Below, one piece after another: positions 40,449 through 61,227 of a stretch of 64,000 nt of DNA. Source of the DNA: Escherichia coli (lineage in GTDB: Bacteria > Pseudomonadota > Gammaproteobacteria > Enterobacterales > Enterobacteriaceae); NCBI RefSeq assembly GCF_024502345.1, contig NZ_JALDNN010000001.1, one strand, 5' to 3'. A program made the position numbers and the translations under genes. The notes below the pieces were generated by a model. That model saw nothing but the letters and a program-made list of their open reading frames with translations, made no database searches and was not told where the DNA came from. Within the stretch, counting starts at the first letter, position 1; each line of letters begins with the position of its first letter.

Positions 40449-41015
40449 TCACGGACAAATCATCCCCGTTCTGGCCGTTGCTATTGGCTCTGACATGGCC
40501 TTAACATGCACGGTAAGCTGGTTAAAGGGTGTTGCGAAGACTCCCTGAGCGACGCGGTTAATAATGATCTGCGTCATACTCGTTACACCGTCAGTGCAGG
40601 CGGTACCGGTCACCTTTTGCCATGCGTCGGCGATGATGGCGTTAAGCCCCGGAGGCGCACTGTCGGTCAGTTGCAGGTTTCGCCCTGTACCCAGCGTATC
40701 GAGATTGAGCAGCAGCACCATTTTGCACTCCGGTGCGCTGGCCGTCTCCCATATCCAGCGTAACAGCGTCGGGAGTGAACGATGTCGTGCCTGCTGACGC
40801 TGGCGCGAATATTCGCCGGTGCGCTGCCAGACTTCAGAGTGAAAACGCAGAATCAATGACCGGTATTCGCTCATGGCTTCACGATACGGTAGCGCCAGCG
40901 TAAAGCTGAATGCCGCCAGTCGCGGGTAATGGTCAACGGCCTGTTGCAGAAATGCACGCGTGCTGACGGCATCCGCGCTGACAGCATCAGACGCCCGTAT
41001 GTAAGAATGATTCAT
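40449..41015 (-). CDS. YagK/YfjJ-like hypothetical protein (recurring paralog family, type A)
   Basis: Clear similarity to ORF 62146..62688 (AFLQQAVDHYPRLAAFSFTL vs RFVQQGVDHWPHLLAFHFTL; LRWIWE...KMVLLLNLD vs LRWLRE...RCLLLLSQT); family name from memory of CP4 prophage proteins. Confidence 0.45.
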   Translation of the reverse strand: MNHSYIRASDAVSADAVSTRAFLQQAVDHYPRLAAFSFTLALPYREAMSEYRSLILRFHSEVWQRTGEYSRQRQQARHRSLPTLLRWIWETASAPECKMVLLLNLDTLGTGRNLQLTDSAPPGLNAIIADAWQKVTGTACTDGVTSMTQIIINRVAQGVFATPFNQLTVHVKAMSEPIATARTGMICP

Positions 41016-42595: not shown

Positions 42596-43201
42596 TCAGC
42601 CACGGCTGCAACCGAAGTTACGCTCACCGTCACCGGTGATTTTGGTCTCCAGCTTGGCTAAATAGGCCGCCTGCGACAGGGCCTGTTGCAGTTGAGCACC
42701 ATCGCCACGTGTCAACCATGAGACTGGACTCGCCGGGAAACGAGCCAGAACGGCATGCGCCTGTGCATCCACCTTCAGGGCGCTGCACCACGCTTGTTTA
42801 ATCATACCTGCAAGCGAATCCGGGTCTTTGTAATCTCCCGGTCCGCACCACGTATCGCGGTTCAGCAACAGCACCGCGTGGTAATGCTTCTTCCCTTTGA
42901 TTTCACCAAACTCCCGCGCCCAGATAAAACGCAGCGTGGTCGGCCAGACGCGTTTGCCCTCGCGACGTTGACGCGTCTGAAGGGCATCAATCCGGGCTTT
43001 CAGGGAATCGGTGAAGCGGGAGATAACAGCAGCATCGGTGGCCGCTGGCGTATCCGGCAGACGGAGGTCAACACGCAGGGCCAGTAAGCGGGTGTAAGCG
43101 TTAAGAGCGCAACTGAAGGTATCAGCGATGCGTTGCTGCCAGTAAGGGTCGTATGTGTAACTCATTAAAATGGACTCCGGTGGGTTATCGTTCATAACCA
43201 T
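42596..43201 (-). CDS. YagK/YfjJ-like hypothetical protein (type B)
   Basis: ...KHYHAVLLLNRDTW...; related to ORF 63213..63803. Confidence 0.45.
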   Translation of the reverse strand: MVMNDNPPESILMSYTYDPYWQQRIADTFSCALNAYTRLLALRVDLRLPDTPAATDAAVISRFTDSLKARIDALQTRQRREGKRVWPTTLRFIWAREFGEIKGKKHYHAVLLLNRDTWCGPGDYKDPDSLAGMIKQAWCSALKVDAQAHAVLARFPASPVSWLTRGDGAQLQQALSQAAYLAKLETKITGDGERNFGCSRG

Positions 43202-43336: not shown

Positions 43337-43762
43337 CTAATGCCGGGTGACCCGAAGGCTGCGAAAAAACAGTCTTCCCGTTAGACGATGGCGGGTACGC
43401 TTGACATAAGCGGCGTCAACGAGTTCATCGGGTGGCAAATCACGGGTGATATTACAAATCGTCGCCAGTGCTGTATCGGAGAGTTTAAAACTCCGTGACA
43501 AGGCGTAGTAATCCCCGGTTTTTTGGTTACTGATGTTATCGAATAACGCTCTGAAGAAATCCGTCTGTGAAGGTCTGCGGGCGTTGATAATTGCCTCTGT
43601 CGCTTCATCCCTGAATGTTACCTCCACCTCTTCCATCCCCAGTGAGCGAATGATCCCGGCAATGTCAGGCCAGTAGCGAAGATCGAAACTGTTAAGTCGC
43701 TGCAATTCTGGCTTACAGAAGCAGCTGAAGATTGCGATGCCCTTGTATTGACCTGGACCCAA
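43337..43762 (-). CDS. hypothetical protein (141 aa)
   Basis: ORF only. Confidence 0.3.
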   Translation of the reverse strand: MGPGQYKGIAIFSCFCKPELQRLNSFDLRYWPDIAGIIRSLGMEEVEVTFRDEATEAIINARRPSQTDFFRALFDNISNQKTGDYYALSRSFKLSDTALATICNITRDLPPDELVDAAYVKRTRHRLTGRLFFRSLRVTRH

Positions 43763-45311
43763 AATAGGTTGTGGTTACCCTGAAAAGCAAATATTACCCC
43801 AGAGGGATGTATATACCCGGGGCAAGAGCCCCTGTACCAGTCCCTCATTGCTGTCATGATATTATTACCCCGTTCAATAAGCCCGATAAATAATCGTTAT
43901 CGGGACTACTGCTAAAACGCCCTGTAACGCATCAGGAGCGCCATATTCATACTAACCACAGATTTCCACTATCGTGTTATTCAATGCGCTTATGCAGGCT
44001 CACAGGAAGCTATGGCGGTATAAGACACTACAGCGCTCAATTACTTATTAAATAGCTTGCGGTGATTACCAGGATAATCACCCTATTCCACGTCACCTCA
44101 ATCGGGTTATTCTGTTTACGATACAATCATGACTATTATCACCAACACGGATAATGCCCCGTTTACAGTCGTTACCAATGGCCTTGTTTACACATATCAA
44201 AAAACTTTCAGGGATAACGGGTCACCGTAGTATCTGTAACTGACAGGTATTGTAAGCGTCAATATCAGGCAGACAGAGCAATACCGACAGGCTTACTACA
44301 GGTTAGTTCACTGACTGAGCATTTAACGCTCATCACTAATACGCAGACCAGTAATAAACCATTGATACTCACCTGCTGATTTTCAGGCATGACCATTCAC
44401 CCAAAACGTTACTGTTAACCAGTAACCACCCTGTCGTTATGATTATTAGATTACTGATGTTAATCATCTTCACTTTTATCCTGACGAGGACTAGTCAATG
44501 GTAATATCGACTCAATTCAATTCTGTTTTCTTAATGATAGATTTTTAATGAGTGCTAAACATTCAGGTTGTGACTACATTGAATGGTGTATTTCTTACCT
44601 GATGGCAATGATTGCTCAATGGATACCATCCAATAGTACTATCCCCTTAGTGAATACCTTCAGATAATAATACCTCCCAGGCATAACCCACTTACTGATA
44701 ACACATCATCGATTACTGTTACAAATGATAAGACCCCTTCTTTAATATATTAATACCAATCCAACACGCCAGGCATAACAATAGCTATGAAGATAACCAC
44801 GCCAGACAGCACTTACCTACAACAAACGCCTGCATCAGTTACTCTGGAATTATCTTTTTTCAATAACATGAAAATAGACACCACGTCATATCAAATAACC
44901 TCAATCAAATTAACCCCGTATCATCACTGCCCGCAGAAGCCCTCAATCCTGATTATGAGCAACAAAATGGAAATACCTCATGGCAGCCCGACCTGATACC
45001 AGAAATGCCCCCTGAAGCGAACCAGGCACCATGATGGGGATGAAAACGAAAGCATGCAGGAGAACAAGATAACCTATTGAGACGATACTCATCCAGTAAA
45101 CAGAGAAGCATCTGAGAGATAAACAAAGAAAATGACAACTTTAAAACCATGGTAAAACCTTGTCAAAACCAGTATAAATCAACAATAAAACCTCACGATG
45201 ACTACCAGATGTGTTTTTAAGTGACGATAAAACCATCATCGTGATACTGTGTAGCTACAACAATCACCACCATAACCACTACTATGTAGTTTACGATTAC
45301 AGGTATCCACA

Positions 45312-46280
45312 ATGGTTGTACATTACGACAATGGCAGACAACATCTTATAAAAACCCGTGACCTGAGAGTCTGTGCTTTTTATGCCGGGTGGCTGGGTGT
45401 TAATAAAATAATTAACACCCGTGACATTCCTCACCAGGATGCAGAAAGTTGTCGACAGGCACTCAACAAACTGATTAATCAGTTCATACCGAATGCAGAA
45501 CAGCGGGCAAGACTTTTTTCTGATATGGAAACAGCCCGTGATGAAAACATCCTTCCGCTGGAAAGTTTTGACTGGCTAGAACAGGATGAACGGGCAACAT
45601 TCTGGTTATGGGCGTATATTTGCAAGGCCGGAGACTACGAACTTGGTATTGACAAACCAGCAAATGCAGAGTTCGGAAAGAACTGGTATCAGCGAATGAA
45701 TCTGAGTGTATCTCCGACAAGCCACCAGGAAAGAATTAATATTATCATCTCTTTTTTCGACAACATTATTATTCCGACCCCACCGGTAAATCATCTCAAG
45801 CGCCAGGTCATGGACAGGCTGAAAGACCAGTGGAAAAATATTTACAGCAAACCAGCTCCGCTGAAATGGTTACCTAATGAAGAAGACGCGGTACTGTGGG
45901 CATGGAACAGCCTCAAATCGCTTCAGGAAGAAAGAAATGCGCCCACTATCGGGCTCTCATTAAATATTTCAACGCCAGGAATGAGTACCTGGTTTACCCC
46001 CCTGAGTCATTCTGAACGCAATTTAGCCCTGCGCACGGCGATCGACTTATGGGACGATGCACCGGATACAAAGCGTTTATTCCTTCTGAACCTGAATAAA
46101 GCCTGGAACCAGCAAAAATTACGTCAGTCCCGTACCGATAAAAAAGCACTCAATACGTACCTGAAGAACGAAACAAAAACTCGACTGGACTTTATGGCAG
46201 AACGTAGCGGAGTTCGCATCAGTGATATGCTGGAAATGCTGATTAATGACCATTACCGAAAAACCTGTGGTGGTGAGTGA
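45312..46280 (+). CDS. hypothetical protein (322 aa), orphan gene after a 1.5-kb AT-rich non-coding region
   Basis: Long ORF with normal amino-acid composition; no family recognised. Confidence 0.5.
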   Translation: MVVHYDNGRQHLIKTRDLRVCAFYAGWLGVNKIINTRDIPHQDAESCRQALNKLINQFIPNAEQRARLFSDMETARDENILPLESFDWLEQDERATFWLWAYICKAGDYELGIDKPANAEFGKNWYQRMNLSVSPTSHQERINIIISFFDNIIIPTPPVNHLKRQVMDRLKDQWKNIYSKPAPLKWLPNEEDAVLWAWNSLKSLQEERNAPTIGLSLNISTPGMSTWFTPLSHSERNLALRTAIDLWDDAPDTKRLFLLNLNKAWNQQKLRQSRTDKKALNTYLKNETKTRLDFMAERSGVRISDMLEMLINDHYRKTCGGE

Positions 46281-46629
46281 GGGCTTTGCGCTAAAAACAA
46301 GGTGAGCGGAGGCAGTAATACAGACCAGAAATGACATTCAAAATAATTTCAGACCTATATTACCGGTGTGAGAACGGCAGCAGAAGTGCTGCCGTTTTGT
46401 TATTTCACTCACGGAGGTTAATGTGTCCAGTAAGAACAAACGGGGTCCCGATACCCTGTTACCGTCGTTATTCCTTCTCCCGGGTCAACTGTCCCACAAA
46501 ATACCCGTGCGTATGCTTCTCGCGCTAAGTCACAGCTATGCTTTCTGTTCCGGTACCCAGGTCTCTCTGATACACGGTCCGCCAGCTCATGAAGGCGGCT
46601 ATTTATTGCCAGTAATAAGGGAGAAAGAA

Positions 46630-46926
46630 ATGCATTGTCCGAATTGCGGTTCGCAAAACATACGACTGCGCCATGTGGGTAAAAAGACGGGTGGGGTCAT
46701 TGGCGCAACAGCCGGAGGCATTGCCGGGCTTGAAGGAGCCTCCACCGGTGCGCTGATAGGTTCAGTCATTCCGGTTGTCGGTACGATAGCCGGAGGCCTC
46801 ATTGGTTTTCTGTCCGGCGCCTGTGCTGGTGCGGTGGCAGGCTCTCTGGCCGGAGAACAACTGGACGGTACCGTCTTTGATGAATACGGCTGCACGCAGT
46901 GCGAGCATATCTTCAGTGCACCGTAA
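46630..46926 (+). CDS. small zinc-ribbon / glycine-zipper membrane protein
   Basis: ORF 46423..46926 trimmed to MHCPNCGSQN (GGGAG RBS); CPNC...CTQC Cys pairs flanking a Gly-rich hydrophobic segment. Confidence 0.45.
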   Translation: MHCPNCGSQNIRLRHVGKKTGGVIGATAGGIAGLEGASTGALIGSVIPVVGTIAGGLIGFLSGACAGAVAGSLAGEQLDGTVFDEYGCTQCEHIFSAP

Positions 46927-50277: not shown

Positions 50278-50673
50278 ATGAGACTAGCCAGCCGCTTTGG
50301 ACGGACAAACCAGATCCGTCGCGATCGTCCGTTAACCCGCGAAGAACTGATGCAGGTCGTTCCCAGCGTATTCAGTGCAGATCGCCACGGTTCCAGGAGC
50401 GAAAAATACGCTTACATACCCACCATTACTCTGCTCGAAAATCTTCAACGCGAAGGCTTTGAACCCTTCTTCGCCTGCCAGTCACGCGTACGCGACCCTG
50501 ACCGCCGGGAGCACACCAAACATCTGCTGCGCCATCTTTGTAGACCGGAGAATGATGTTTGGATGAAAGCGAGTTTTGGTACCCTCATCATTGAGGGTAC
50601 CAACAGCAAAATACTCGGCGAATGCTATTGTCTAAGCACAGCGCCAAGCCTTAGCGGCACGAATAGTTGTTAA
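50278..50673 (+). CDS. DUF932-like (YfjQ-like) protein, probably 3'-truncated
   Basis: MRLASRFGRTNQIRRDRPLTREELMQVVPSVF... resembles N-termini of CP4-prophage DUF932 proteins as I recall them; ORF ends 2 bp before the convergent res gene. Confidence 0.35.
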   Translation: MRLASRFGRTNQIRRDRPLTREELMQVVPSVFSADRHGSRSEKYAYIPTITLLENLQREGFEPFFACQSRVRDPDRREHTKHLLRHLCRPENDVWMKASFGTLIIEGTNSKILGECYCLSTAPSLSGTNSC

Positions 50674-50675
50674 CC

Positions 50676-53414
50676 TTACTCAGCTTTAGCAAACTGCTGG
50701 GTGAAGTAAGCCAATGAATTAGCTTCTTTTACGGCATCATGCGGAATGAGTAAGTATTTCCAAGGTTTGCCACCGTGCTGTGCAAGGTATTCACTGGCAT
50801 GACTACACCATTTCACACCACTGCGGGCTTTTTCGGTGACTTCCTCATTCCAACTGCCGTCTTGGTTTTGATGTTGAGTACTTTTAGTTTCAATCATCAA
50901 TACATAGTCGGCGGTTTCAGCAACGAAATCCGGCACGTATTCAGGATGCTCGCTACCGCGTTTGTAGTACATCTTGAATTGGCCTTTGGCAGGCTTAAAC
51001 CACTTCTCGCAGTCGCGTTCTAAAATCACCGCAAAACGGCGCTCAGTGTCTGAATCAAACTTTTGCAATGGGTATAGACAACGGCTAAAGCCGCCAAAGA
51101 GCATTTGTTTGATGCGACTGACATCGCGTACTGTATCACGGTAGCTTTGCACCGGCTGGTCTTGCGCTATGGTGTAAGCGCAGTCACGTAAGGTACTAAA
51201 GCCACTGCGTACATCGACGACGTACTCGGTTGCTTCTTCAAAGAAGTGGTTGTTCAGTTGCGCATGAATTAACTTCGCAATCGCATCACTCTGGTTTTGC
51301 AGAATGTTCTCAACCACATCGTCGTCGTTTTCAGCGGCCAGTGTATTGACAGCTTGAGTGGCTAGGTCAAACAAAAGTTCAGCTTGCTCGTCGTAAGGAA
51401 TATCGTCGTAATCGAACAGCTTCTTCAAAATATAGTTTTGTTTCACCGGCTCGTAGTTGCCCGAATCGCCTTCGCCACGAATGGTTTGGTGATTGTCTTG
51501 CAGGCTTTGTTGAATCAGAGTTCGGTCGATAGGTTTTAAACCTTTAATGGCAGCAATGTCCAAATCGAACGGGTGATAGCCGGTACGTACTTCACCTGAT
51601 GGTGAAACAATAATACGCGGAATATCTATGGTGTTATCCACCGTGAGCTGGGTGACTTGCTCAACAATCGCCGCAATATCCACCGATTCTTCAGTAAATA
51701 GCTCCCGTTGCTCTTGGGTTAACTGAGCTTTTACTTGTTCGGTGATCTGTGCTTTTACCTCAGTCGTTAACAATGCTTTGCTGGTCGGCGCATCGGTAGG
51801 GCGTGTTTGATATTGCTTGATCACGTCCAATGCAGCGCGGGCAACGGTTTGTTGGTTAGGCGTGGTATAAGTGGCTTTAGGTTCTTGTACCTCACGGTTA
51901 CCGTCTGCACCGGTTGCGGTTACACCTGAACCAGTCAGTTGCTGCTCTAGGTTCGATTTAACCTGCACACTTTGTTTGGTTACATCGTCTTCTGGGCGAT
52001 CTAATACGCGTGTTTTCAGGCGCAGTGGGTTATTCGGGTCGTTAGCCTCATCAACAATTTCTTGGAATTTGTCGTGCGCAACAATGCTCAGCGTATCGAC
52101 GGCTTCAACACCTGTACGTTTGCCATAAGGTAAACGCAAACCACGGCCAATTGACTGTTCAATTAGGGTTCTGGCGTTGGCTGCACGTAGTGGCACAATG
52201 GTGTACAGGTTAGTAACGTCCCAACCTTCTTTCAGCATGTTAACGTGAATGACGATCTCGGTTGGCTCATCGACATGCTCAACATTGAGCAGTGCTTGAA
52301 TAGTTTCTTCTTCTTTTTTACTGCTATCCACTTGAATGACTTTGCCACGGTAGCGGCCGTCAAACACTGTTTCAAGTTTGGTTAAAAGCTCTGCTGCATG
52401 CGTGGTATCACGGGCAATCACCAACATAAAAGGCTTAACTAACTTAGCATCGTTTTCATGTGCATAAGTGATTAAATCCACCTTGGTTTGCTCATGTAAA
52501 CGAATACCGTCCATTAACTTAATGGTTTCTAGTTCGTCTTTATCATATTGGCTGGCATCAAAGTTACGCTGAGTAACAACGGCAGGCTCTTTAACAAAAC
52601 CATCATCCATGGCACAGGCCAATGGGTAATCAATCACCACATTTTTAAAGTGCACAGGGCCACGACTTGATTCGGTAAATGGTGTGGCCGTTAGCTCTAA
52701 TGCGAATAGTGGATTAAGCTCATTGAGCGCACGCATACCGGCATCGGCACGATAGCGATGCGATTCGTCCATCAGCAGCACTAAGTCAGGTAAGTTCGAT
52801 AGATACTCAAAGTAGCTTTCGCCTAGGGTTTCCGCTAAACGCTTAATACGCGGGGCTTTGCCTCCACGTACTTCGGTGTTAATTTTCGCGATGTTAAACA
52901 CATTGATCCGAACCGAACCAAATAGATCGCCCATGACTTGTGCGCCGCGGCTCTCATAGTTATCACCGGTGATCACTTCTGGCGGTGCTAGCACAAAATC
53001 GGTAATGCCTTTAAACACGTACTTCGGTGAGGCGGGCGAGAAATCGCTGATCAGCTTTTCATAAATAGTCAGGTTAGGTGCCAACACAAAATAATTGCGA
53101 ATGCCATGTACCTGATACAAATAGGTAATAAACGCCCCCATCAAACGGGTTTTACCTACACCTGTTGCCAAGGCAAAACACAGTGAAGGAAAGTCACGTT
53201 CAAAATCGCTGAGCTTAGGAAACTGCGCTTTTAAGGTTTCTAATAGCTCCGGCACATCGCGTTTTGGGTTCAGTAGTTTGTGCTCAGAAGCACTAATCGC
53301 CACTGCCAACGCACGCAGCGAATCTTGCTGCGGCTGGCGTAAGCTTAAACGGCCAATAATATTATTAATGGCACGTAATTGGTCGGGTTTTAAGCTTGAT
53401 AAATCCATGGTCAT
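50676..53414 (-). CDS. type III-like restriction enzyme Res subunit (SF2 helicase plus C-terminal PD-(D/E)xK nuclease)
   Basis: 912 aa; Walker A LATGVGKTRLM; DEAH-like motif LVLLMDESHR; C-terminal ...YVPDFVAETADYVLMIETK... reads as a PD-(D/E)xK core. Confidence 0.75.
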   Translation of the reverse strand: MTMDLSSLKPDQLRAINNIIGRLSLRQPQQDSLRALAVAISASEHKLLNPKRDVPELLETLKAQFPKLSDFERDFPSLCFALATGVGKTRLMGAFITYLYQVHGIRNYFVLAPNLTIYEKLISDFSPASPKYVFKGITDFVLAPPEVITGDNYESRGAQVMGDLFGSVRINVFNIAKINTEVRGGKAPRIKRLAETLGESYFEYLSNLPDLVLLMDESHRYRADAGMRALNELNPLFALELTATPFTESSRGPVHFKNVVIDYPLACAMDDGFVKEPAVVTQRNFDASQYDKDELETIKLMDGIRLHEQTKVDLITYAHENDAKLVKPFMLVIARDTTHAAELLTKLETVFDGRYRGKVIQVDSSKKEEETIQALLNVEHVDEPTEIVIHVNMLKEGWDVTNLYTIVPLRAANARTLIEQSIGRGLRLPYGKRTGVEAVDTLSIVAHDKFQEIVDEANDPNNPLRLKTRVLDRPEDDVTKQSVQVKSNLEQQLTGSGVTATGADGNREVQEPKATYTTPNQQTVARAALDVIKQYQTRPTDAPTSKALLTTEVKAQITEQVKAQLTQEQRELFTEESVDIAAIVEQVTQLTVDNTIDIPRIIVSPSGEVRTGYHPFDLDIAAIKGLKPIDRTLIQQSLQDNHQTIRGEGDSGNYEPVKQNYILKKLFDYDDIPYDEQAELLFDLATQAVNTLAAENDDDVVENILQNQSDAIAKLIHAQLNNHFFEEATEYVVDVRSGFSTLRDCAYTIAQDQPVQSYRDTVRDVSRIKQMLFGGFSRCLYPLQKFDSDTERRFAVILERDCEKWFKPAKGQFKMYYKRGSEHPEYVPDFVAETADYVLMIETKSTQHQNQDGSWNEEVTEKARSGVKWCSHASEYLAQHGGKPWKYLLIPHDAVKEANSLAYFTQQFAKAE

Positions 53415-53435: not shown

Positions 53436-55142
53436 TTAATCTTGCGCTGCATCGTCATCGGCAGACGCATCGTCAGTTAGGTTTGCCACGTTTAACGAAT
53501 AATCGTCCTGACCAAATTGGCACTTGTCTAAAATGGCTTTTGGCAGTTTTTTCAAGGTTAAATTGGTAAAACGACCTGGCTCGCAGCGAAATGCACCACA
53601 CATAACCAGTAAAGTTCGGTCACTGCCAACTTCTTCTGACAGCGCTTCTAATTTATCTACCGATAAGCTTTGTGTGGTGACATAAATATGATCCGTCTCG
53701 GTTGAATAACCGTGATCCCACCAATTCACTTCCGATGGCGCATAGGTAAAACCTTCCAGCTTACAAACGGCTTCGGCGAGCATTTCTGGGTTGTACTCTT
53801 TATTGATCACTTCCAAGCCAAACTTATCTTTCACAATTAAGGTCGGGGCAAGTTTGTAATAGCGGAAGCCACCGCCACCTTGCCAGTTTACAGACTTAGA
53901 AATACCACCTTGATCTTCGCCATCAATCACTTTTTGCAAGCGCGGGATAATATGGGTATGACAATGATCACCTAGCTCGACCGAGATCCAACGTCTTTTC
54001 ATCTTGTGAGCTACAGCAGCAGTAGTTCCCGAACCACCGAATGAATCAAAGACTAAATCGCCTTCTCGCGTACACATTTCGAAAATCCGCTTCAAAAGCG
54101 CTTCGGGTTTTTTTCCATTTTTGAAACTAACGCCGCCTTCATTTGCTATTCCATTCCAACTAATGTCAGTCCAAACATCAGTTATTAGTTCAGCAGGTTG
54201 CATCTCACCGTCAATTTCCAAAAGCCTATTGGAGTAAAAGACCATTTGCCTACCATTTGCGATATAAAAGCCTTCGACATCCTCATTTGGATGTACATAA
54301 ACCTTATCCCTATCTTTCTTTGACTTCTCGATAGTTTCTTTTCTCTTTATTTTAGCACCACCACCAATTGCAACGGATTGAAATACACGTTCTGCATTAT
54401 CAATTGCGAATTGTGCTAATTCATCATCAAATGTATCAGGCAGTTTTTTCTTGGCTTCTTTTGTATCTTTATAGCCATTGGCCTTTGCAAACGCATCGGC
54501 AATACCGCACCACGTCCAACTTTTATAATGGTCATCTGGGTTTAATAGATATTTGTTATATCCCGTATCATATCCTTTAGGTATATAGATTTTGTTAAGC
54601 GGTTTCTGGGTGCGATCTTTTGCGTATACAAGCAAAAAGTTTACTGTGGAGAAAACTGTGGCCCCTGTTGCCTTAAAGCCTGAAGGGTCATTTGTGGTCA
54701 TCGATATGGTATTTAACTGATTTGCACGACCAAAAATCTCGTCCATCAAAACTTTTAAATAAGCCATTTCGCAGTCATCTAAGTGAACGAATATTACTCC
54801 ATCATCACTTAGTAGATTACGAATTATTTCTAACCTATCCCTCATTAAGCCCAGCCAAATGGAATGCTCCAGACCATCATCATAGTGCTCAAAAGCACTT
54901 CCGGTATTGAATGGTGGGTCTATGTAAACACACTTCACTTTGCCTGCATATTCTTGCTCTAGCGCCTTCAATGCCAATAAGTTATCGCCAAAAATCAGTT
55001 TATTATCAAAAATATCGTTTTCGGTCACTTTTTGGCTGGCGTGATAAGACTTGCTCGGGTCTTCTAACAAAATGCGCGGCTCTAACTTTTTGCGCTCGTT
55101 TTTGCCTATCCAGGTCAGTTCTAATTTGGTTTTGCTCATCAT
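53436..55142 (-). CDS. type III-like Mod DNA methyltransferase (beta-class N6-adenine/N4-cytosine)
   Basis: 568 aa; motif IV DPPFNTG near the N-terminus and motif I FDSFGGSGTT about 290 aa later (order IV-TRD-I). Confidence 0.8.
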   Translation of the reverse strand: MMSKTKLELTWIGKNERKKLEPRILLEDPSKSYHASQKVTENDIFDNKLIFGDNLLALKALEQEYAGKVKCVYIDPPFNTGSAFEHYDDGLEHSIWLGLMRDRLEIIRNLLSDDGVIFVHLDDCEMAYLKVLMDEIFGRANQLNTISMTTNDPSGFKATGATVFSTVNFLLVYAKDRTQKPLNKIYIPKGYDTGYNKYLLNPDDHYKSWTWCGIADAFAKANGYKDTKEAKKKLPDTFDDELAQFAIDNAERVFQSVAIGGGAKIKRKETIEKSKKDRDKVYVHPNEDVEGFYIANGRQMVFYSNRLLEIDGEMQPAELITDVWTDISWNGIANEGGVSFKNGKKPEALLKRIFEMCTREGDLVFDSFGGSGTTAAVAHKMKRRWISVELGDHCHTHIIPRLQKVIDGEDQGGISKSVNWQGGGGFRYYKLAPTLIVKDKFGLEVINKEYNPEMLAEAVCKLEGFTYAPSEVNWWDHGYSTETDHIYVTTQSLSVDKLEALSEEVGSDRTLLVMCGAFRCEPGRFTNLTLKKLPKAILDKCQFGQDDYSLNVANLTDDASADDDAAQD

Positions 55143-55196: not shown

Positions 55197-57062
55197 CTAC
55201 GCAGGTTGTGCTTGGCGATTACTCGCTTGGGTGTTTTGCCCTTGTCGGCGTTGCGCTTGCTCGGCTAAGTAACTGAATAAATTCTGGTTGTGTGGGTCGT
55301 TCGCTTGAAGGCGTTCTTGTTTTGCTACAACTGCCGGGCTTTCTGCCAAGTTTAAATGGCTAATCCACACCGTTTGCATTAAACGTGCGGTATCGCCCAA
55401 GCGTTTGAAGTATGCGTGCGGCGCACTGCCTAATACTAATGCCGTAAAACTATCAAAAAATTGCTGACGAAGTTCATCAAAAGCGTGGCTGATTAATCTT
55501 TTAAATGCCGCTTGCTCGGTAATCTCAGGAGCCGTAATAGCGCCTTCAAACTGCGCCATTAATAGCGTGGTTATGCAGTAAGTAAAATGTCGATATACCA
55601 GTTTTTCTGGGCTTGGACTACTGCGCTCTGCGTTTGTACATAAGACTTGAATAGCCAGATAGCAGTTCACCGCGTTAATGGCGACGGCCCCCTGTAAATC
55701 TGTACTAAAAACGGCTTGGTACTCGGCACTTTCTTGGTTAGTGAATTTGCTTGGCTCTACTTTTAGCTGATAAGGCACGCGTACATCACCGTGCATACAG
55801 GCCAATGCTTTGGCCAAGGTGTCGATAGTAATGCTGCGAATACCCGCTGCTGCGCTTTGTTGTGGGCGGTAGAGATATTCAACACCAAACATTTTCATCT
55901 CTTGGCGCAAGCGTTCTTGGGTATCATCCAGCGCGGCAAAGTTGGCTAAATCGACCGGGTTTTGCAGGTTACGCGCTTTGGTTACTTGTTTGTGAAATGC
56001 ATCGTTACCCGTGTTGATAATGGTTACCATCACTTGAGCTTGGCTGATGTCTGCATTTGGGTTTTCACGCATAAACTGTGCAGCACTAGCAATGGTTTGT
56101 GCACCGTTAACGACGGACAGGCCATCGACTGCAACATGCTTGCTACCTGTGTGGCCTCTAATATTCCCTTTTGGTTTTACTGCATTGCCAACCAGAGTAA
56201 TGCCATTGTTAAGATAAATAAAATTTTCCGGCTCATGTAAAAGGGTGTCTTTAATCGCCCTATTTACCCCACGTCTGCCAGCACCAATAAAATAGCGAAT
56301 ATTTTTCTCGTAAAGTTTACGGTCATGAGTAGTGTGCAAGGCAATTAAATCGGTTAGCTTGGCGATACCAAATACGACTTTTCGTGGTTGTTCTTGCACT
56401 CGGAACTTATATACAGCGACACGCTCGTTTACCGTATCAACCGCATGTTCACTGCGAAGAGCCTGCTCAACATCGGTGGCGGTGTATTCTTGATATTCAG
56501 GTGCGATTTGCTCTTCACCTTCATCAATCAGCTCTTGGATCGCTGGTTGTAGGTAGTTTTGTGCTTGTATGGTAATGCCATTACCTGTGTATGCGACAAG
56601 CAGTTGAATTCTTTCGCACTCGTCTAATGCGGCTTCAATATTTGCTTGAAGGTTTTGAACATTTTGATTAAAGCGGTGAAATTGCTTGTTTAAAAGTAAC
56701 TTTACACCCTCAATAAAAGCCTGTGCTTCGCCCAATTGGAATTGCGCATCTTCCTTCATTTTTGACTGTACTAAGTACAGAGTCTGATCAGCTTCGTGAT
56801 AATAAATTGCATCAATACCATGGTCTTCATAGTCGTCCACCACAGCTTTTGCTGCGGTCACTACGTCTAAATCGAATTTTTGCTGTAGTACGAATGCGCT
56901 AAAAGCCCTGGAAATTTGCTTTTTAGGTTTATCTTCTCGCCCACCTTGCCCAAGCAATGGCGGTAAATGCGGCACAAAACGCTGCTGTAGCAGTTCTTTT
57001 AATAGGGTAAGAAATTGTGGTTGTAATGCTGCCAAGTGAGTTGTCCTTATTTTTATTGCCAA
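55197..57062 (-). CDS. AIPR-like putative abortive-infection protein (tentative) with N-terminal PD-(D/E)xK-like motif
   Basis: 621 aa; N-terminal ...[22 protein letters not shown]... resembles a nuclease core; family assignment from memory only; start overlaps the upstream Abi_2 gene by about 10 nt. Confidence 0.35.
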
Positions 57063-57994
57063 ATTGGCCGCGCTTGCCAGTCGGCTGGAAAGCCCATGCG
57101 GTCAATGTCTATTTGGTGATGATTTATCAATTGGATGAGTCGTTGCTTCCAGTGATGTTCACCACTGATCACATCCATGAGGTAGCCCAACATCACCAAG
57201 GTGTTATAAATTTTTCGTAAACGCCGGTCGCTATCGGGCAGGTTTTGCAAGCTTTGAATCAGTGCCGGTTCACCATGGCGTGGCAGTACCGTGGTTTTAA
57301 TAAAATCACGGTTCCATAGCCTAGAATGATGGGCACTTAAATTGCGCACTAGCGACAAATGCTCACAGAATGAGGTAAGAGTTTTTTCATCTAGGCCGTA
57401 GCTTTTGCTTATTACCTGGCGGTCGGCACGCAGCTTGATATTGCTGTACCAACAGGAAAGTTGCCCCATGGTTAACAGCTCAACACAGGCCCAAATAGGG
57501 GGTAGTGGCTCTTGATATTTTTGCGTAAGGTGCTTGATGAACTCTTCACGACTGCACTTTACCTCACCCGTGAGTTTGCCAAGGCTACTGGCGTATTCTA
57601 ATAAATCACCAAAGAGCTCTGGTTTTAAATGAGGGTGCGCGGTTTGGTATTTTTGGCTCAACTGATACGCAATTTGTGTGCGTAATGACACCTCAAAACG
57701 CTCGATGGCATCTAGCACTAACAAACGTAGTTCACGGTCGAAAACATATAGGCTTAGGACTTGGTCAAACTGAGTACCTGTGATAAACGTATGACTGGCA
57801 TGATCTTGCTCATAGGGCAAACAATAAGCCGCAAAACGATAGTAGTTCAGCTGTGCTAAGTAAAACTCAGCTTTCGGGACATCACTGATCACTAGGCCAC
57901 GTTGTTGCAACAAGCGTACTTGATCGCTAAAGCTTGTAGGGGGCTTGGTAAAAGCGACTTTAGGGACTGGTTTGCGGCTCATTTGACCTCCCAT
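57053..57994 (-). CDS. Abi_2 family (AbiD/AbiF-like) abortive infection protein
   Basis: 313 aa; ...FGDLLEY... and ...[19 protein letters not shown]... match the hallmark Abi-like motifs as I recall them. Confidence 0.65.
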
Positions 57995-58139: not shown

Positions 58140-61034
58140 TCATTGAACCGTCCACCCAATGGTAAATAGGGTCTCTTGGCTGGTTTTTTTATTCAGTTTG
58201 CCTTCTAAGCTTTCAATCAGCTGTTCGCGCTTTTCGTCCACTTCATCTTGTTTATCAAACAGTTCACGGCGGCTTTTATTGCGCTGACTTTCTAACTGGC
58301 GCTGCTGTTTTTGCAGGGCAAGTTTCTCTTCCAGGGTTGGAGCTATTTTGGCTTCGCGGCGTACTTGCTTGATTTGCTTATCAAGCTCTTTTATAGATTG
58401 TTCAAGCCCTTCTTTTAAATCGTCTGCCCAAGAATCTAACTTGTTTACCTCTTGCTCGAAGAAGCTGAGATTACGATCGTTAACTTGCTTTTCGATGCCT
58501 AGTCTCGACTGCTGTAACGCATGCTGCAGCGCATATTGATAGCCAGGATATAAGGCGGCAAGTTCTTGCTCACTTACTTCACTTTGCACACAGGCACTAA
58601 GCTGCATCAGCTTTTGCACGACTTCACTTGGTAGCGGATGACCATGTTCATCTTGCGCGGCGAACAATAAATGGTCTTCGCTACGCTCCAATGATTCGAC
58701 ACTAAATTTTTGTAGGCTTAGTACACCTGACAAACCCACTAAGGGTTCTAGCATACTGATTTTTGTTTGGTGGTTGCTGTAATCAAAAATTACGCTGGCA
58801 ATGGGTAATTCACGTTGAAGCGCGTTGCTGATCACCCATTCACCCAGCGGGTGGGTGATACGATACACATGGGCATTGGCTAGTTTACCGGTTTCAATAC
58901 TGCCGCTTTGCTGTCCTCGGCGTACAAGTTGGTAGCTACCTGTAGGAGCCTGATTGATACTTTGATTAAGCGTAAAACTATGGTTGCTTGGGTCAATGTC
59001 TGCGATAGCTGCAAGTTCATGCGTACTGAGTTGCCAGAACCAACGGCCTACTTTATCGAGGCGTTGCTGCGCGGCATCTAGCTGAATTTTGAGTAAGTCG
59101 TGAATATCTTCATCGAAATTTTCCAGCAGCAGTTGCTGGGTCTCGCGCATTTTTTGGTTGATGTCGGCTTCTAGCTCTTTTTGCAATTGATCAAAAGCTG
59201 CTTCTATTTCCGCCGGTTGCCGACAAGTCTCGTATATATTTTGGATGCGTTTTTCAAAATCAATACCAGATTCAATGCTGCCTAGCACATCGTCCGATGC
59301 ACCAAACACGCCATCGAACAGATGGAATTTTTCAGTCAGTAACTCTAAAACACGCTGATCGGCTTTGTTGGCTTCGTTGAGGAAGTTGATCACCACAACA
59401 TCAAATTGCTGCCCATAGCGGTGACAACGGCCAATACGTTGCTCTACTCGTTGTGGGTTCCATGGTAAGTCATAGTTAATAAGTAACGAACAGAACTGTA
59501 AGTTAACCCCTTCTGCAGCCGCTTCGGTTGCGATCATAACTTCGGCATGATGGCGGAAGTAATCAATTAGGGCAGTACGGCGGTCAATTTGCGGTGAACC
59601 ACTCACCTTATCACTACCTTGGTTTTCAGCTAACCACTGCTGATAAACTTTGGTTGCTTCTGGATGGTTATTGCTGCCACTAAAGGTGACTAATTTATCA
59701 GCAAAGCCATTCGCCTCGAGGAAACGAGCTAGGTATTCTTGCGTGCGCTTCGATTCGGTAAAAATAATGACTTTACGTGGCGCCCCCATTTCCTCCATTT
59801 TGGCAAACCCTTGATTAAGCGCCGTTAGCAAGGCTTGGGTTTTACTGTCGGTGGTAATGGATTTAGCCTGCTCGATATAATGCTCAAGCTCGGCTATTTC
59901 AGCATTGAGTAACTCAAAGTCAATATCACTCTCAGGGGTATTGCTTTGTGTTTCTTCTACATACTCGCTGTACTCTTCTCCTAAATCATCACTCTCAACA
60001 AGCTCACTGATAATATCGAGGTCCGATTTAGCCTGTACTTTCAAGTCAACCAATCGGCGCTTTATAGTTTCGAGTGTGTTGAGCACTGCGTGCGAACTAG
60101 ATGCTAATAGCTTTCTCAGTATAAGGCCGGTTAAATGACGTTGGCTCTTGGGTAGTGCATAGCTCTCGTCCTTTTCCAATAAGGCACTAATACTTTCGTA
60201 AAGTGCCATCTCAGCATTAGAGGGTGTAAACGGTACGGTGAGTGTTTGACGTTGGGTATAGCGGACGTATTCGAGTACATCTTTGCGCAAGGTACGCTGA
60301 ATAAACCCGGTAAGTCGTTTCTTTAAATGCCCTAGCGCACTTTCGTTATTGACAAAGTGTTGTTTGAAGCTTCGCTCATCGCCGAAGATTTGATCGTCGA
60401 TAATGGTTGAAAGTCCATACAATTCCATGAGCGAGTTTTGTAAGGGTGTTGCAGTAAGTAATAGCTTTTTACTGCCATCTAATGCGCGGCGTAGCGTTTG
60501 ACCCATTTTATTGCTGCTACGATGTGCATTACGTAGCTTGTGCGCTTCGTCGATGACGACAATATCCCATGGCTCTAGCATTAGCTGCGTTTCCATTCTC
60601 GCAGCATAGTGATAGGACATAATAGAAACGCAGTGATTAGCTAGCGGGTTAGTTTGACCATTGTTAACACTAATGCGCCACGTTTTTGCATCAAGCACTT
60701 GCGTTGGTAAATTAAACTTATCGCCCAATTCCTGCGCCCACTGGCGTCGCAATGACGCCGGGCAGATGATCAATATGCGGCGTTTACGCTCTGCCCAATA
60801 CTGTGACAGTACTAAGCCTGCTTCAATAGTTTTCCCTAAGCCCACTTCATCAGCGAGTACAACACCTTTGCTTAACGGGTTGTTGAGCGCAAAAAGTGCC
60901 GCATGAATTTGGTGCGGATTGAGATCAACACTGGCATCAAAAAGAGATTGAGACAATTTATCAACGCCATTTTCAGCGTGGCGAATGGTTAATTCCTGCG
61001 CAAAGTATTTTGCTTGATAATCAGTTATTACCAT
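58140..61034 (-). CDS. SNF2-family (SWI2/SNF2) DEAD/DEAH-box helicase with long coiled-coil C-terminal extension
   Basis: ORF 58140..61115 trimmed to the ATG at 61034 that overlaps the stop of the upstream HTH gene (ATGGTAATAACTGA); motifs LADEVGLGKTIEAG, IVVIDEAHKLRN, helicase C motif ...QRIGRCHRYGQ.... Confidence 0.85.
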   Translation of the reverse strand: MVITDYQAKYFAQELTIRHAENGVDKLSQSLFDASVDLNPHQIHAALFALNNPLSKGVVLADEVGLGKTIEAGLVLSQYWAERKRRILIICPASLRRQWAQELGDKFNLPTQVLDAKTWRISVNNGQTNPLANHCVSIMSYHYAARMETQLMLEPWDIVVIDEAHKLRNAHRSSNKMGQTLRRALDGSKKLLLTATPLQNSLMELYGLSTIIDDQIFGDERSFKQHFVNNESALGHLKKRLTGFIQRTLRKDVLEYVRYTQRQTLTVPFTPSNAEMALYESISALLEKDESYALPKSQRHLTGLILRKLLASSSHAVLNTLETIKRRLVDLKVQAKSDLDIISELVESDDLGEEYSEYVEETQSNTPESDIDFELLNAEIAELEHYIEQAKSITTDSKTQALLTALNQGFAKMEEMGAPRKVIIFTESKRTQEYLARFLEANGFADKLVTFSGSNNHPEATKVYQQWLAENQGSDKVSGSPQIDRRTALIDYFRHHAEVMIATEAAAEGVNLQFCSLLINYDLPWNPQRVEQRIGRCHRYGQQFDVVVINFLNEANKADQRVLELLTEKFHLFDGVFGASDDVLGSIESGIDFEKRIQNIYETCRQPAEIEAAFDQLQKELEADINQKMRETQQLLLENFDEDIHDLLKIQLDAAQQRLDKVGRWFWQLSTHELAAIADIDPSNHSFTLNQSINQAPTGSYQLVRRGQQSGSIETGKLANAHVYRITHPLGEWVISNALQRELPIASVIFDYSNHQTKISMLEPLVGLSGVLSLQKFSVESLERSEDHLLFAAQDEHGHPLPSEVVQKLMQLSACVQSEVSEQELAALYPGYQYALQHALQQSRLGIEKQVNDRNLSFFEQEVNKLDSWADDLKEGLEQSIKELDKQIKQVRREAKIAPTLEEKLALQKQQRQLESQRNKSRRELFDKQDEVDEKREQLIESLEGKLNKKTSQETLFTIGWTVQ

Positions 61035-61227
61035 CCAACACCCCTTTTCCTTGAGCTGCTTGCGTACTGATCCATTCTTCAAGATCGGATTGTTTAAAGC
61101 GCCAAGCATTGCCAACTTTAAAAGCAGGAATTTTATGTACCGCTGCTAGACGGTAAACAGTTCTCTCATTTACCTTCAAATACTCAGCTACTTCTTTAAT
61201 TGTCAGAACGGTATCAGTCATTTTCAC
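61021..61227 (-). CDS. small excisionase/MerR-like HTH DNA-binding protein, first gene of the operon
   Basis: 68 aa; ...LTIKEVAEYLKVNERTVYRLAAVHKIPAFKVGNAWRFKQSDLEEWI.... Confidence 0.6.
   Translation of the reverse strand: MKMTDTVLTIKEVAEYLKVNERTVYRLAAVHKIPAFKVGNAWRFKQSDLEEWISTQAAQGKGVLDGNN

Follow-up and report, generated by a model that had tools for sequence, protein, structure and literature searches.

We describe a gene-free stretch of 1549 nt, at positions 43763-45311 of a 64-kb window of an Escherichia coli contig (NZ_JALDNN010000001.1; the window is the whole stretch of DNA that was analysed, and positions are counted from its first letter), together with the gene for a protein of 322 amino acids (aa) that it precedes. 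This gap is a conserved non-coding backbone hub that separates the leftward and the rightward modules of a CP4-57/serU-type island. It is best read as an uncharacterised example of an AT-rich control region in a horizontally acquired island. Specifically, the explanation we favour, and to which we give about an even chance, is that the gap acts at the level of the DNA, as a region occupied by proteins that control transcription of the 322-aa gene. Judged from its sequence, the product of that gene is probably itself a DNA-binding protein, with a ribbon-helix-helix (RHH)-type domain at its C-terminus.

A conserved gap without genes

If ORF-free is taken to mean that none of the six frames holds an open reading frame (ORF) of at least 80 aa, then 43763-45311 is the longest ORF-free interval of the window; the runner-up measures 523 nt, and the ORF listing gives at most 69 codons for the longest open frame within the gap. 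A preliminary description of this DNA had seen no convincing ORF here and had called the region AT-rich, and both statements hold: the GC content is 40.3%, lower than in the window as a whole (47.8%) and than in the 4-kb flanks (54-56%), which places the gap in the lowest 2% among same-size windows. The gene-free stretch is also real, but it begins at 43763 and not at 43800 as first described, and a variable cargo junction outside the conserved module makes up its first ~150 nt. The two strands differ strongly in composition. The + strand contains 16.3% G, the minimum for any 1549-nt window on either strand, with a GC skew down to -0.38 and an AT skew up to +0.40, and the median C/G ratio in 78-nt windows is 1.47 in the gap and 1.06 for the window overall.

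Related loci were collected from genomes, from exact-protein look-ups and from a metagenome scan with a conserved 20-mer of box C0 (described below), giving a comparison set of 16-21 diverged non-redundant loci, depending on the analysis. Removal of near-duplicates left 17 sequences that are 56-74% identical to the window over the last 600 nt. In each locus, 0.9-1.9 kb of gene-free DNA separate a YagK/YfjJ gene (or adjoining cargo) from a homologue of the 322-aa gene. The conserved backbone module spans ~1.4 kb (43914-45311 in the window), and both its length and its G-poor strand bias are kept, the G content of the gap being 13-19% in every locus.

A hidden gene or pseudogene can be rejected from the same comparison. 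Identity in the three phases of the gap is 0.60/0.60/0.565, i.e., without 3-nt periodicity, unlike the coding sequence of the 322-aa gene, where identity by codon position is 0.735/0.823/0.55. Of 102 indels in the gap 95 are not multiples of 3, the similarity among translated gap frames is at the level expected from 70% DNA identity, and the stretch is the longest in the window without an ORF.

The island type follows from the annotation of identical DNA in E. coli EH09-18-41 and in the plasmid pMB18183_1 and from Pfam matches. To the left of the gap, the leftward module on the - strand comprises zinc-ribbon proteins, AlpA, YagK/YfjJ (annotated as 'inovirus Gp2 family') and a variable cargo slot. 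To the right, the annotation of the identical DNA gives, on the + strand, the 322-aa gene, a glycine-zipper membrane protein, a WYL/HTH regulator, DUF4234, DUF905 and DUF932, and further on an anti-restriction protein, RadC, DUF987 and CbeA/CbtA. The gene order of this backbone is matched in 15 related loci.

The promoter-proximal block and the 322-aa gene

The features next to and within the gene are:

45123-45293, + strand: block D, kept in 13-18 of 21 loci at 0.73 identity, without codon periodicity
45143, 45154, 45165, 45176 (degenerate), 45187 and 45229, + strand: AAAACC repeats in an 11-bp register
45193-45201 and 45236-45244: 9-bp inverted repeat, TCACGATGA and TCATCGTGA, bracketing 45193-45244
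45221-45250, + strand: candidate extended -10 promoter, GTGACG (45221-45226), 18 nt, TG-A-TACTGT (45242-45250)
45251-45258 and 45278-45290: palindromes of block D, of the CTAC/GTAG kind, GTAGCTAC and ACTAC-TAT-GTAGT, with GTAGTTT invariant
45312-46280, + strand: 322-aa gene; predicted helical domain at residues 1-260 and RHH-type domain at residues ~273-317
46371-46398, + strand: hairpin and T-run resembling an intrinsic terminator, with a 12-bp stem (6 GC pairs) followed by TTTTGTTATTT

Block D is the best conserved part of the gap, and strong purifying selection acts on the 170 nt before the gene. It can still be recognised in loci of E. albertii, Yersinia, Providencia and Morganella, where the encoded proteins are only 38-63% identical. 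An 11-nt period in the block is detected by TRF, and because the spacings of the AAAACC repeats are exact multiples of 11 bp, the repeats share one face of the helix. The distant E. albertii locus has also kept the register. Taken as sequence, the arrangement is as expected for a promoter with operators, either for an autoregulator of the RHH type, for other regulators of the island, or for both. The description of the gap as a regulatory region is thus reasonable, given its position before the gene and the strongly conserved promoter-proximal block in otherwise non-coding, AT-rich DNA.

The gene itself is present at 45312-46280 as first described, and with a GC content of 44.9% it is also AT-rich. 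Similarity to the DNA of relatives runs on through the terminator-like hairpin, and by these signals the 322-aa gene is a separate transcription unit with its own predicted terminator.

The 322-aa protein

The protein had been introduced as an orphan of no recognisable family. It is not an orphan, and its C-terminal end has a recognisable RHH-type domain, while no family in the curated libraries covers its full length. Among 5.8 billion proteins searched, 106 clusters across Enterobacterales are homologous to it, at 37-98% identity; the genera represented include Salmonella, Klebsiella, Enterobacter, Serratia, Pectobacterium, Lonsdalea, Providencia, Morganella, Yersinia, Edwardsiella and Escherichia. 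The homologues are always found in CP4-57/serU-type islands. The C-terminal 70 residues of the family are nearly invariant, and this end of the protein matches the RHH family PF10723 (RepB-RCR_reg): taken alone, the last 50 residues reach 22.8 bits, above the cut-off of 21. The match to PF10723 is found in 19 of 22 family members, and other RHH families are among the weak matches. PHROG and PADLOC gave no match for the protein.

The AlphaFold2 (AF2) monomer is a confident all-helical model (pLDDT 86.7), with helices at residues 286-299 and 303-319, and it has no solved relative. The strand expected at ~277-285 is modelled as a helix, at lower confidence.

The upstream 1.2 kb

Further from the gene, the conserved module consists of short boxes in DNA that is otherwise strongly diverged:

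43337-43762, - strand: truncated ORF at the left edge of the gap, a cargo remnant outside the conserved module
43763-43914, no strand assigned: variable cargo junction, with an 8-bp hairpin (43882-43889/43897-43904) and CCGATAAATA
43915-44011, no strand assigned: block A, the left end of the backbone, aligned in 15 of 16 other non-redundant loci
43915-43940, 43968-43985 and 43999-44011: the boxes of block A, AAACGCGCTGTAACGCATCAGG, a second box and CTTACAGnAAGCC, respectively
44012-44733, no strand assigned: hypervariable centre, with all copies of TTACTG/CAGTAA
44408-44426 and ~44620-44632: inverted repeats of the centre, GTTACTG-TTAAC-CAGTAAC and TGGAT-ACC-ATCCA
44734-44767, + strand: box C0, CCCCTTCTTTAATATATTAATACCAATCCAACAC, which includes the 12-bp palindrome TTAATATATTAA (44742-44753)
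Within 44839-45063, + strand: boxes C1-C4, conservation islands in a 16-sequence alignment
44839-44856, 44948-44969, 44988-45021 and 45050-45063: the members of C1-C4, TnACTCTGGAATTATCTT, CCTGATTCTGAGCAAC, CCTG..CTGATG..CTGA.GCGAA and AGCGTGCAGAAGG, respectively

The left boundary of the module is at 43914: left of it the related loci fall into at least three unrelated sequence classes, and to the right the sequence is shared. From block A to the start codon the distance is 1248-1549 nt across loci. Block A yielded no fold other than a weak - strand hairpin of 7 bp (-4.5 kcal/mol).

The centre is of a different kind. Its equivalents in relatives measure 595-838 nt, with 14-18% G and 22-27% C, and fall into at least seven mutually unalignable types. 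That of the window aligns only with a Klebsiella type (loci L013, L020 and L034, ~70% identity) and with part of a Salmonella locus (L010); both of its inverted repeats are perfectly kept in L013. The recurring motif noticed in the preliminary description belongs here. Its enrichment in the window is real, with 7 copies of TTACTG/CAGTAA in the gap where 0.93 are expected, and 11 copies of TTACTGAT (at most one mismatch) where 2.0 +/- 1.3 are expected, all within 44041-44834, but it is specific to one allele of a hypervariable segment. As an operator of the whole family TTACTGAT is rejected, since it is enriched only in the window allele and in a Salmonella microsatellite. The latter is a perfect (GATTACT)x13 in Salmonella enterica (L010:4222-4312), 694-778 nt upstream of the homologous gene; it is built from the TTACTGA motif that is scattered through the window's gap, and could be slippage-prone and hence phase-variable. 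A Dam-dependent phase switch based on clusters of GATC was also considered and rejected, as the centre has 0-1 GATC per allele, which is under expectation.

Box C0 is the most invariant element outside the promoter block. Of 21 non-redundant loci, 16 have it in identical or near-identical form; its distance to the start codon downstream is 519-591 nt throughout, and the window has one copy. Used against metagenomes, its 20-mer retrieved 17 further homologous loci along with 6 chance matches. By eye, none of LexA, CRP, sigma-54 or DnaA-box readings fits any of the individual boxes, and none is conserved. Between the C boxes the identity to the window is 0.59, compared with 0.55 at third codon positions of the gene. 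Block C is thus for the most part about as diverged as third codon positions, which argues that selection acts on the short boxes and on block D, and apparently also on length and strand composition.

A proposed control region acting at the DNA level

The favoured explanation brings these elements together as follows. The 322-aa gene would be read from the weak extended -10 promoter at 45221-45250, and the phased repeats and palindromes over its start site would be operators, bound by the C-terminal domain of the 322-aa protein, by other regulators of the island, or by both. Read in this way, the gene is probably autoregulated. The AT-rich, A-tract-phased DNA may in addition nucleate silencing of the H-NS type, and the upstream 1.2 kb would be mainly a spacer that carries accessory binding sites.

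Silencing by H-NS is usual for foreign AT-rich DNA in these hosts, and phased A-tracts in such DNA are classical H-NS targets. The phased A-tracts of block D and the island context fit with H-NS-type silencing, and the gap is plausibly silenced by H-NS. The high-affinity H-NS motif has one weak match in the gap (8/10, CCGATAAATA in the cargo junction), which is no more than in the flanks. Strain CFT073, for which there is an H-NS chromatin immunoprecipitation data set (PMC9765446), is not among the carriers of the sister island that we describe below.

Several observations weigh against this explanation. The two hexamers of the candidate promoter match the consensus at only 4/6 and 3/6 positions, neither a consensus promoter scan nor a sigma-70 scan over 16 loci listed the site at 45221-45250, and the latter gave no + strand site that is well conserved. 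On the protein side the RHH match is marginal: the full-length protein scores 19.6 bits with PF10723, below the cut-off, and the match to NF010256 (IncFII RepA2/CopB; E = 1.3e-4) reaches 21.9 bits, below a cut-off of 87. An AF2 model of a linked tandem dimer has low confidence (pLDDT 54.7) and contains no strands, and so no beta-ribbon, and a profile search of the PDB returned nothing significant. Finally, a plain control region leaves three properties of the upstream DNA unexplained, namely that its 1.2 kb keep their length, that the excess of C over G and the low G content are kept across alleles that cannot be aligned, and that box C0 is invariant at ~570 nt from the gene. Because of the conserved length, the strand bias and the invariant distal box, we give some probability to a function in replication or as a leader.

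Alternative explanations

We regard it as unlikely that the gap gives rise to a long, unstructured and untranslated transcript, i.e., that it is a leader in one direction or the other. If transcribed rightward, its C-rich, G-poor RNA would load Rho and the rightward module would stay off unless an antiterminator acts; if transcribed leftward, the G/U-rich, C-poor RNA would resist Rho and cross the 1.4 kb toward the cargo slot and the YagK-AlpA genes. Such a leader would account for a strand bias that reaches the window minimum for G and is kept even in unalignable sequence, and the lack of secondary structure is what a Rho loading region requires. On the - strand there is a promoter-like TTGACA-17-TAAAGT (10/12) at 45166-45138, and the 16-locus sigma-70 scan gave one further, weak - strand site near 44975 that recurs in 9/16 loci; a weak - strand hairpin with a T-run lies at the left edge of block A, and regulators of the AlpA type are encoded next door. 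An antiterminator role of AlpA is known only from other systems. However, the same scan found no conserved promoter at the left end from which a rightward transcript could start, the - strand promoter-like sites are poorly conserved in the window itself, and conservation over most of block C does not exceed that of synonymous sites.

A second possibility, which we consider improbable, is an origin: the excised island would be nicked in the gap by the HUH endonuclease YagK/YfjJ, with box C0 as the best candidate site, and the 322-aa protein would control the process. The window has two copies of YagK/YfjJ on the - strand, at 42596-43201 and 40449-41015. An HUH motif (HYH; KHYHAVLLLN) and a YxxK motif (AAYLAK) are retained in the homologues of different genera, which identifies these proteins as nickases of the HUH type; both motifs have been lost from the second copy in the window. 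There is also a match to the Rep family PF23343, below threshold for the window copy (E = 3e-5) and above the cut-off for the E. coli copy (34.8 bits), and the element would thus encode a cognate HUH initiator of the rolling-circle type. The C-terminus of the 322-aa protein resembles regulators of replication, both of rolling-circle elements (PF10723) and of IncFII plasmids (RepA2/CopB), and C0 is a single-copy, invariant, AT-rich box with a palindrome. It has TTCTTTAATA in common with the nick region of M13 gpII and ATATTAATA with the phiX174 origin.

This likeness to the M13/f1 gpII and phiX174 gpA origins goes no further than a nearby protein with an HUH motif and an identity of 9-10 AT-rich bases, with a chance probability of a few percent for each match. 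C0 lacks the flanking hairpin of those origins, and no hairpin around it is conserved. A homology of YagK to M13 gpII is unsupported, as the latter belongs to other Pfam families (PF05144/PF05155) and the two have no similarity. No hairpin loop or adjoining initiator repeats mark a nick site at C0, and the window holds neither iterons nor a second (termination) copy. It also counts against an origin that the distance of C0 is fixed to the 322-aa gene, not to YagK, which is separated from C0 by variable cargo and is missing from one locus.

A related and more extensive claim, to which we give slightly less credence again, is that the gap and its two flanking genes form an unrecognised replication (or mobilisation) module of CP4-57/serU-type islands. 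YagK/YfjJ would then act on C0, the RHH end of the 322-aa protein would set the level of initiation through the phased AAAACC operators, and the G-poor strand bias would reflect a single-stranded or heavily transcribed intermediate. The literature searched on YagK/YfjJ function, on DUF932 islands and on leading-region promoters held nothing bearing on the locus.

We find it harder still to believe that the gap is the remains of one or more decayed genes, or a neutral spacer that serves no purpose apart from the promoter. Block C and the centre do evolve at or above the rate of third codon positions, the expansion of a heptanucleotide microsatellite in the Salmonella allele points to relaxed constraint there, and the neighbouring ORF at 43337-43762 is a gene fragment. 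But none of the 16-21 diverged loci has an open frame or any similarity at the protein level, length and strand composition are kept across at least seven unalignable alleles, the boxes A, C0 and C1 are invariant far from the gene, and an analogous unannotated gap is kept in E. coli islands.

The weakest candidate, a structured small or large non-coding RNA hidden in the gap, has in its favour a long, conserved, non-coding region and the short conserved inverted repeats at 44408-44426 and 45278-45290, and is very improbable, as is the hidden small RNA that was first suggested as a possibility: Rfam has no match at E<=1 in the window from 40 to 50 kb, nor in the E. coli sister gap, RNAalifold gives 0 to -6 kcal/mol and no conserved structure for blocks A, C and D on both strands in the 17 diverged sequences, single-sequence folding z-scores for the centre (-1.5 and -1.85) are not significantly structured, and a G content of only 15-16% leaves little capacity for pairing.

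Carriers, cargo slot and neighbouring genes

The same DNA is found at >=99% identity in one E. coli chromosome, in two E. coli plasmids and in 16 large plasmids of Klebsiella, Raoultella and Citrobacter, and the gap is unannotated in every one of these records. Among E. coli genomes and plasmids there are only such copies and no diverged DNA homologues, and viral contigs gave no DNA match to the gap. The copy of the island in the window breaks off within DUF932, at ~50670, with 131 aa left (50278-50673). No attachment site came to light: there is no tRNA in the 64-kb window, and an integrase was not sought beyond the ORF list. The plasmid copies and the truncation suggest an immobilised fragment of an island.

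By tblastn, the truncated ORF at 43337-43762 corresponds only to residues 146-266 of a 270-aa protein. Siccibacter encodes this protein intact, on the opposite strand (L004:3582-4394), and L005 does so in part. The truncated ORF has no Pfam, PHROG or PADLOC match. Its orientation, inverted relative to Siccibacter, points to an inversion and a deletion in the cargo slot that separates YagK/YfjJ from block A. The same slot is occupied in Hafnia, Tenebrionibacter and Rouxiella by genes for OLD-family (AAA_15/TOPRIM) nucleases (L003:1883-3859, L006:2400-4370 and L015:33-1970), which suggests a hotspot for defence genes.

Other genes near the gap and beyond the island are:

46630-46926, + strand: small gene after the 322-aa gene; its 98-aa product has a glycine-zipper membrane segment and CxxC pairs at either end
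50676-53414, - strand: type III restriction gene Res, the first gene of a defence cluster beyond the truncated DUF932
53436-55142, - strand: Mod, same cluster
55197-57062, - strand: AIPR, same cluster
57053-57994, - strand: Abi_2, same cluster
58140-61115, - strand: SNF2 helicase, same cluster

The gene for the 98-aa glycine-zipper protein is kept in islands of the Klebsiella type.

Relation to known systems and significance

CP4-57, CP4-44 and CP4-6 of E. coli K-12 and the serU-type islands of pathogenic E. coli have the same gene set in the same order, namely AlpA, YagK/YfjJ, a GTPase/WYL regulator, DUF905, DUF932, anti-restriction, RadC, DUF987 and CbeA/CbtA. The three K-12 elements are not known to have the 322-aa gene. 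The islands of E. coli ABU 83972, enterotoxigenic E. coli H10407, ST131 and others do have a 322-aa homologue (38% identity), behind an unannotated gap of 1.75-1.86 kb (L043:6001-7859 in ABU 83972, L044:5001-6750 and L019:3175-5000). This E. coli-type gap differs from that of the window, in that only block D is common to both. The 1.1 kb of the sister gap that adjoin YagK/YfjJ are found in 1877 of 5426 complete E. coli genomes at 80-90% identity, with no annotated feature. The island of ABU 83972 further has, a few kb to the left of YagK/YfjJ, a gene for a paralogue from the H-NS family and a frameshifted gene of the ProQ/FinO family (L043:1523-3194).

Compared with RHH repressors (PF10723; IncFII RepA2/CopB), residues ~273-317 of the 322-aa protein align to the C-terminal two-thirds of proteins of ~80 residues, and the 322-aa gene likewise lies near a Rep-like (HUH) gene and AT-rich non-coding DNA. 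Iteron-type RHH operators on one face of the helix are known from ParR/parC of R1 and from omega and its heptads in pSM19035. Here AAAACC is likewise repeated four to six times at 11 bp, upstream of and within the candidate promoter of a gene of the RHH type. However, unlike those systems the window has no partition ATPase or actin-like partner and fewer repeats, and its phased A-tracts may just as well be intrinsic bends or sites for H-NS. The gap resembles H-NS-silenced regions in its phased A-tracts, in its place in an island and in its AT content, with a GC content 15 points below that of the flanks, but its strand asymmetry and its invariant boxes are not explained by the binding of H-NS.

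The literature searched gave no published function for the gap or for the family of the 322-aa gene. The islands concerned are very common: roughly one in three complete E. coli genomes has the sister gap, and the form of the gap seen in the window rides on large resistance plasmids of Klebsiella. The cargo of these islands includes toxin-antitoxin, anti-restriction and defence genes. What is new here is a map of conserved non-coding elements, a widespread protein family with an end of the DNA-binding type, and a slot for cargo insertion directly left of 43914. If only the ordinary reading holds, the gap is one more AT-rich island promoter region. If instead the gap and its flanking genes were a replication module, very common 'cryptic prophages' would be autonomous rolling-circle replicons after their excision. 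The mapped elements make the control logic of these islands directly testable.

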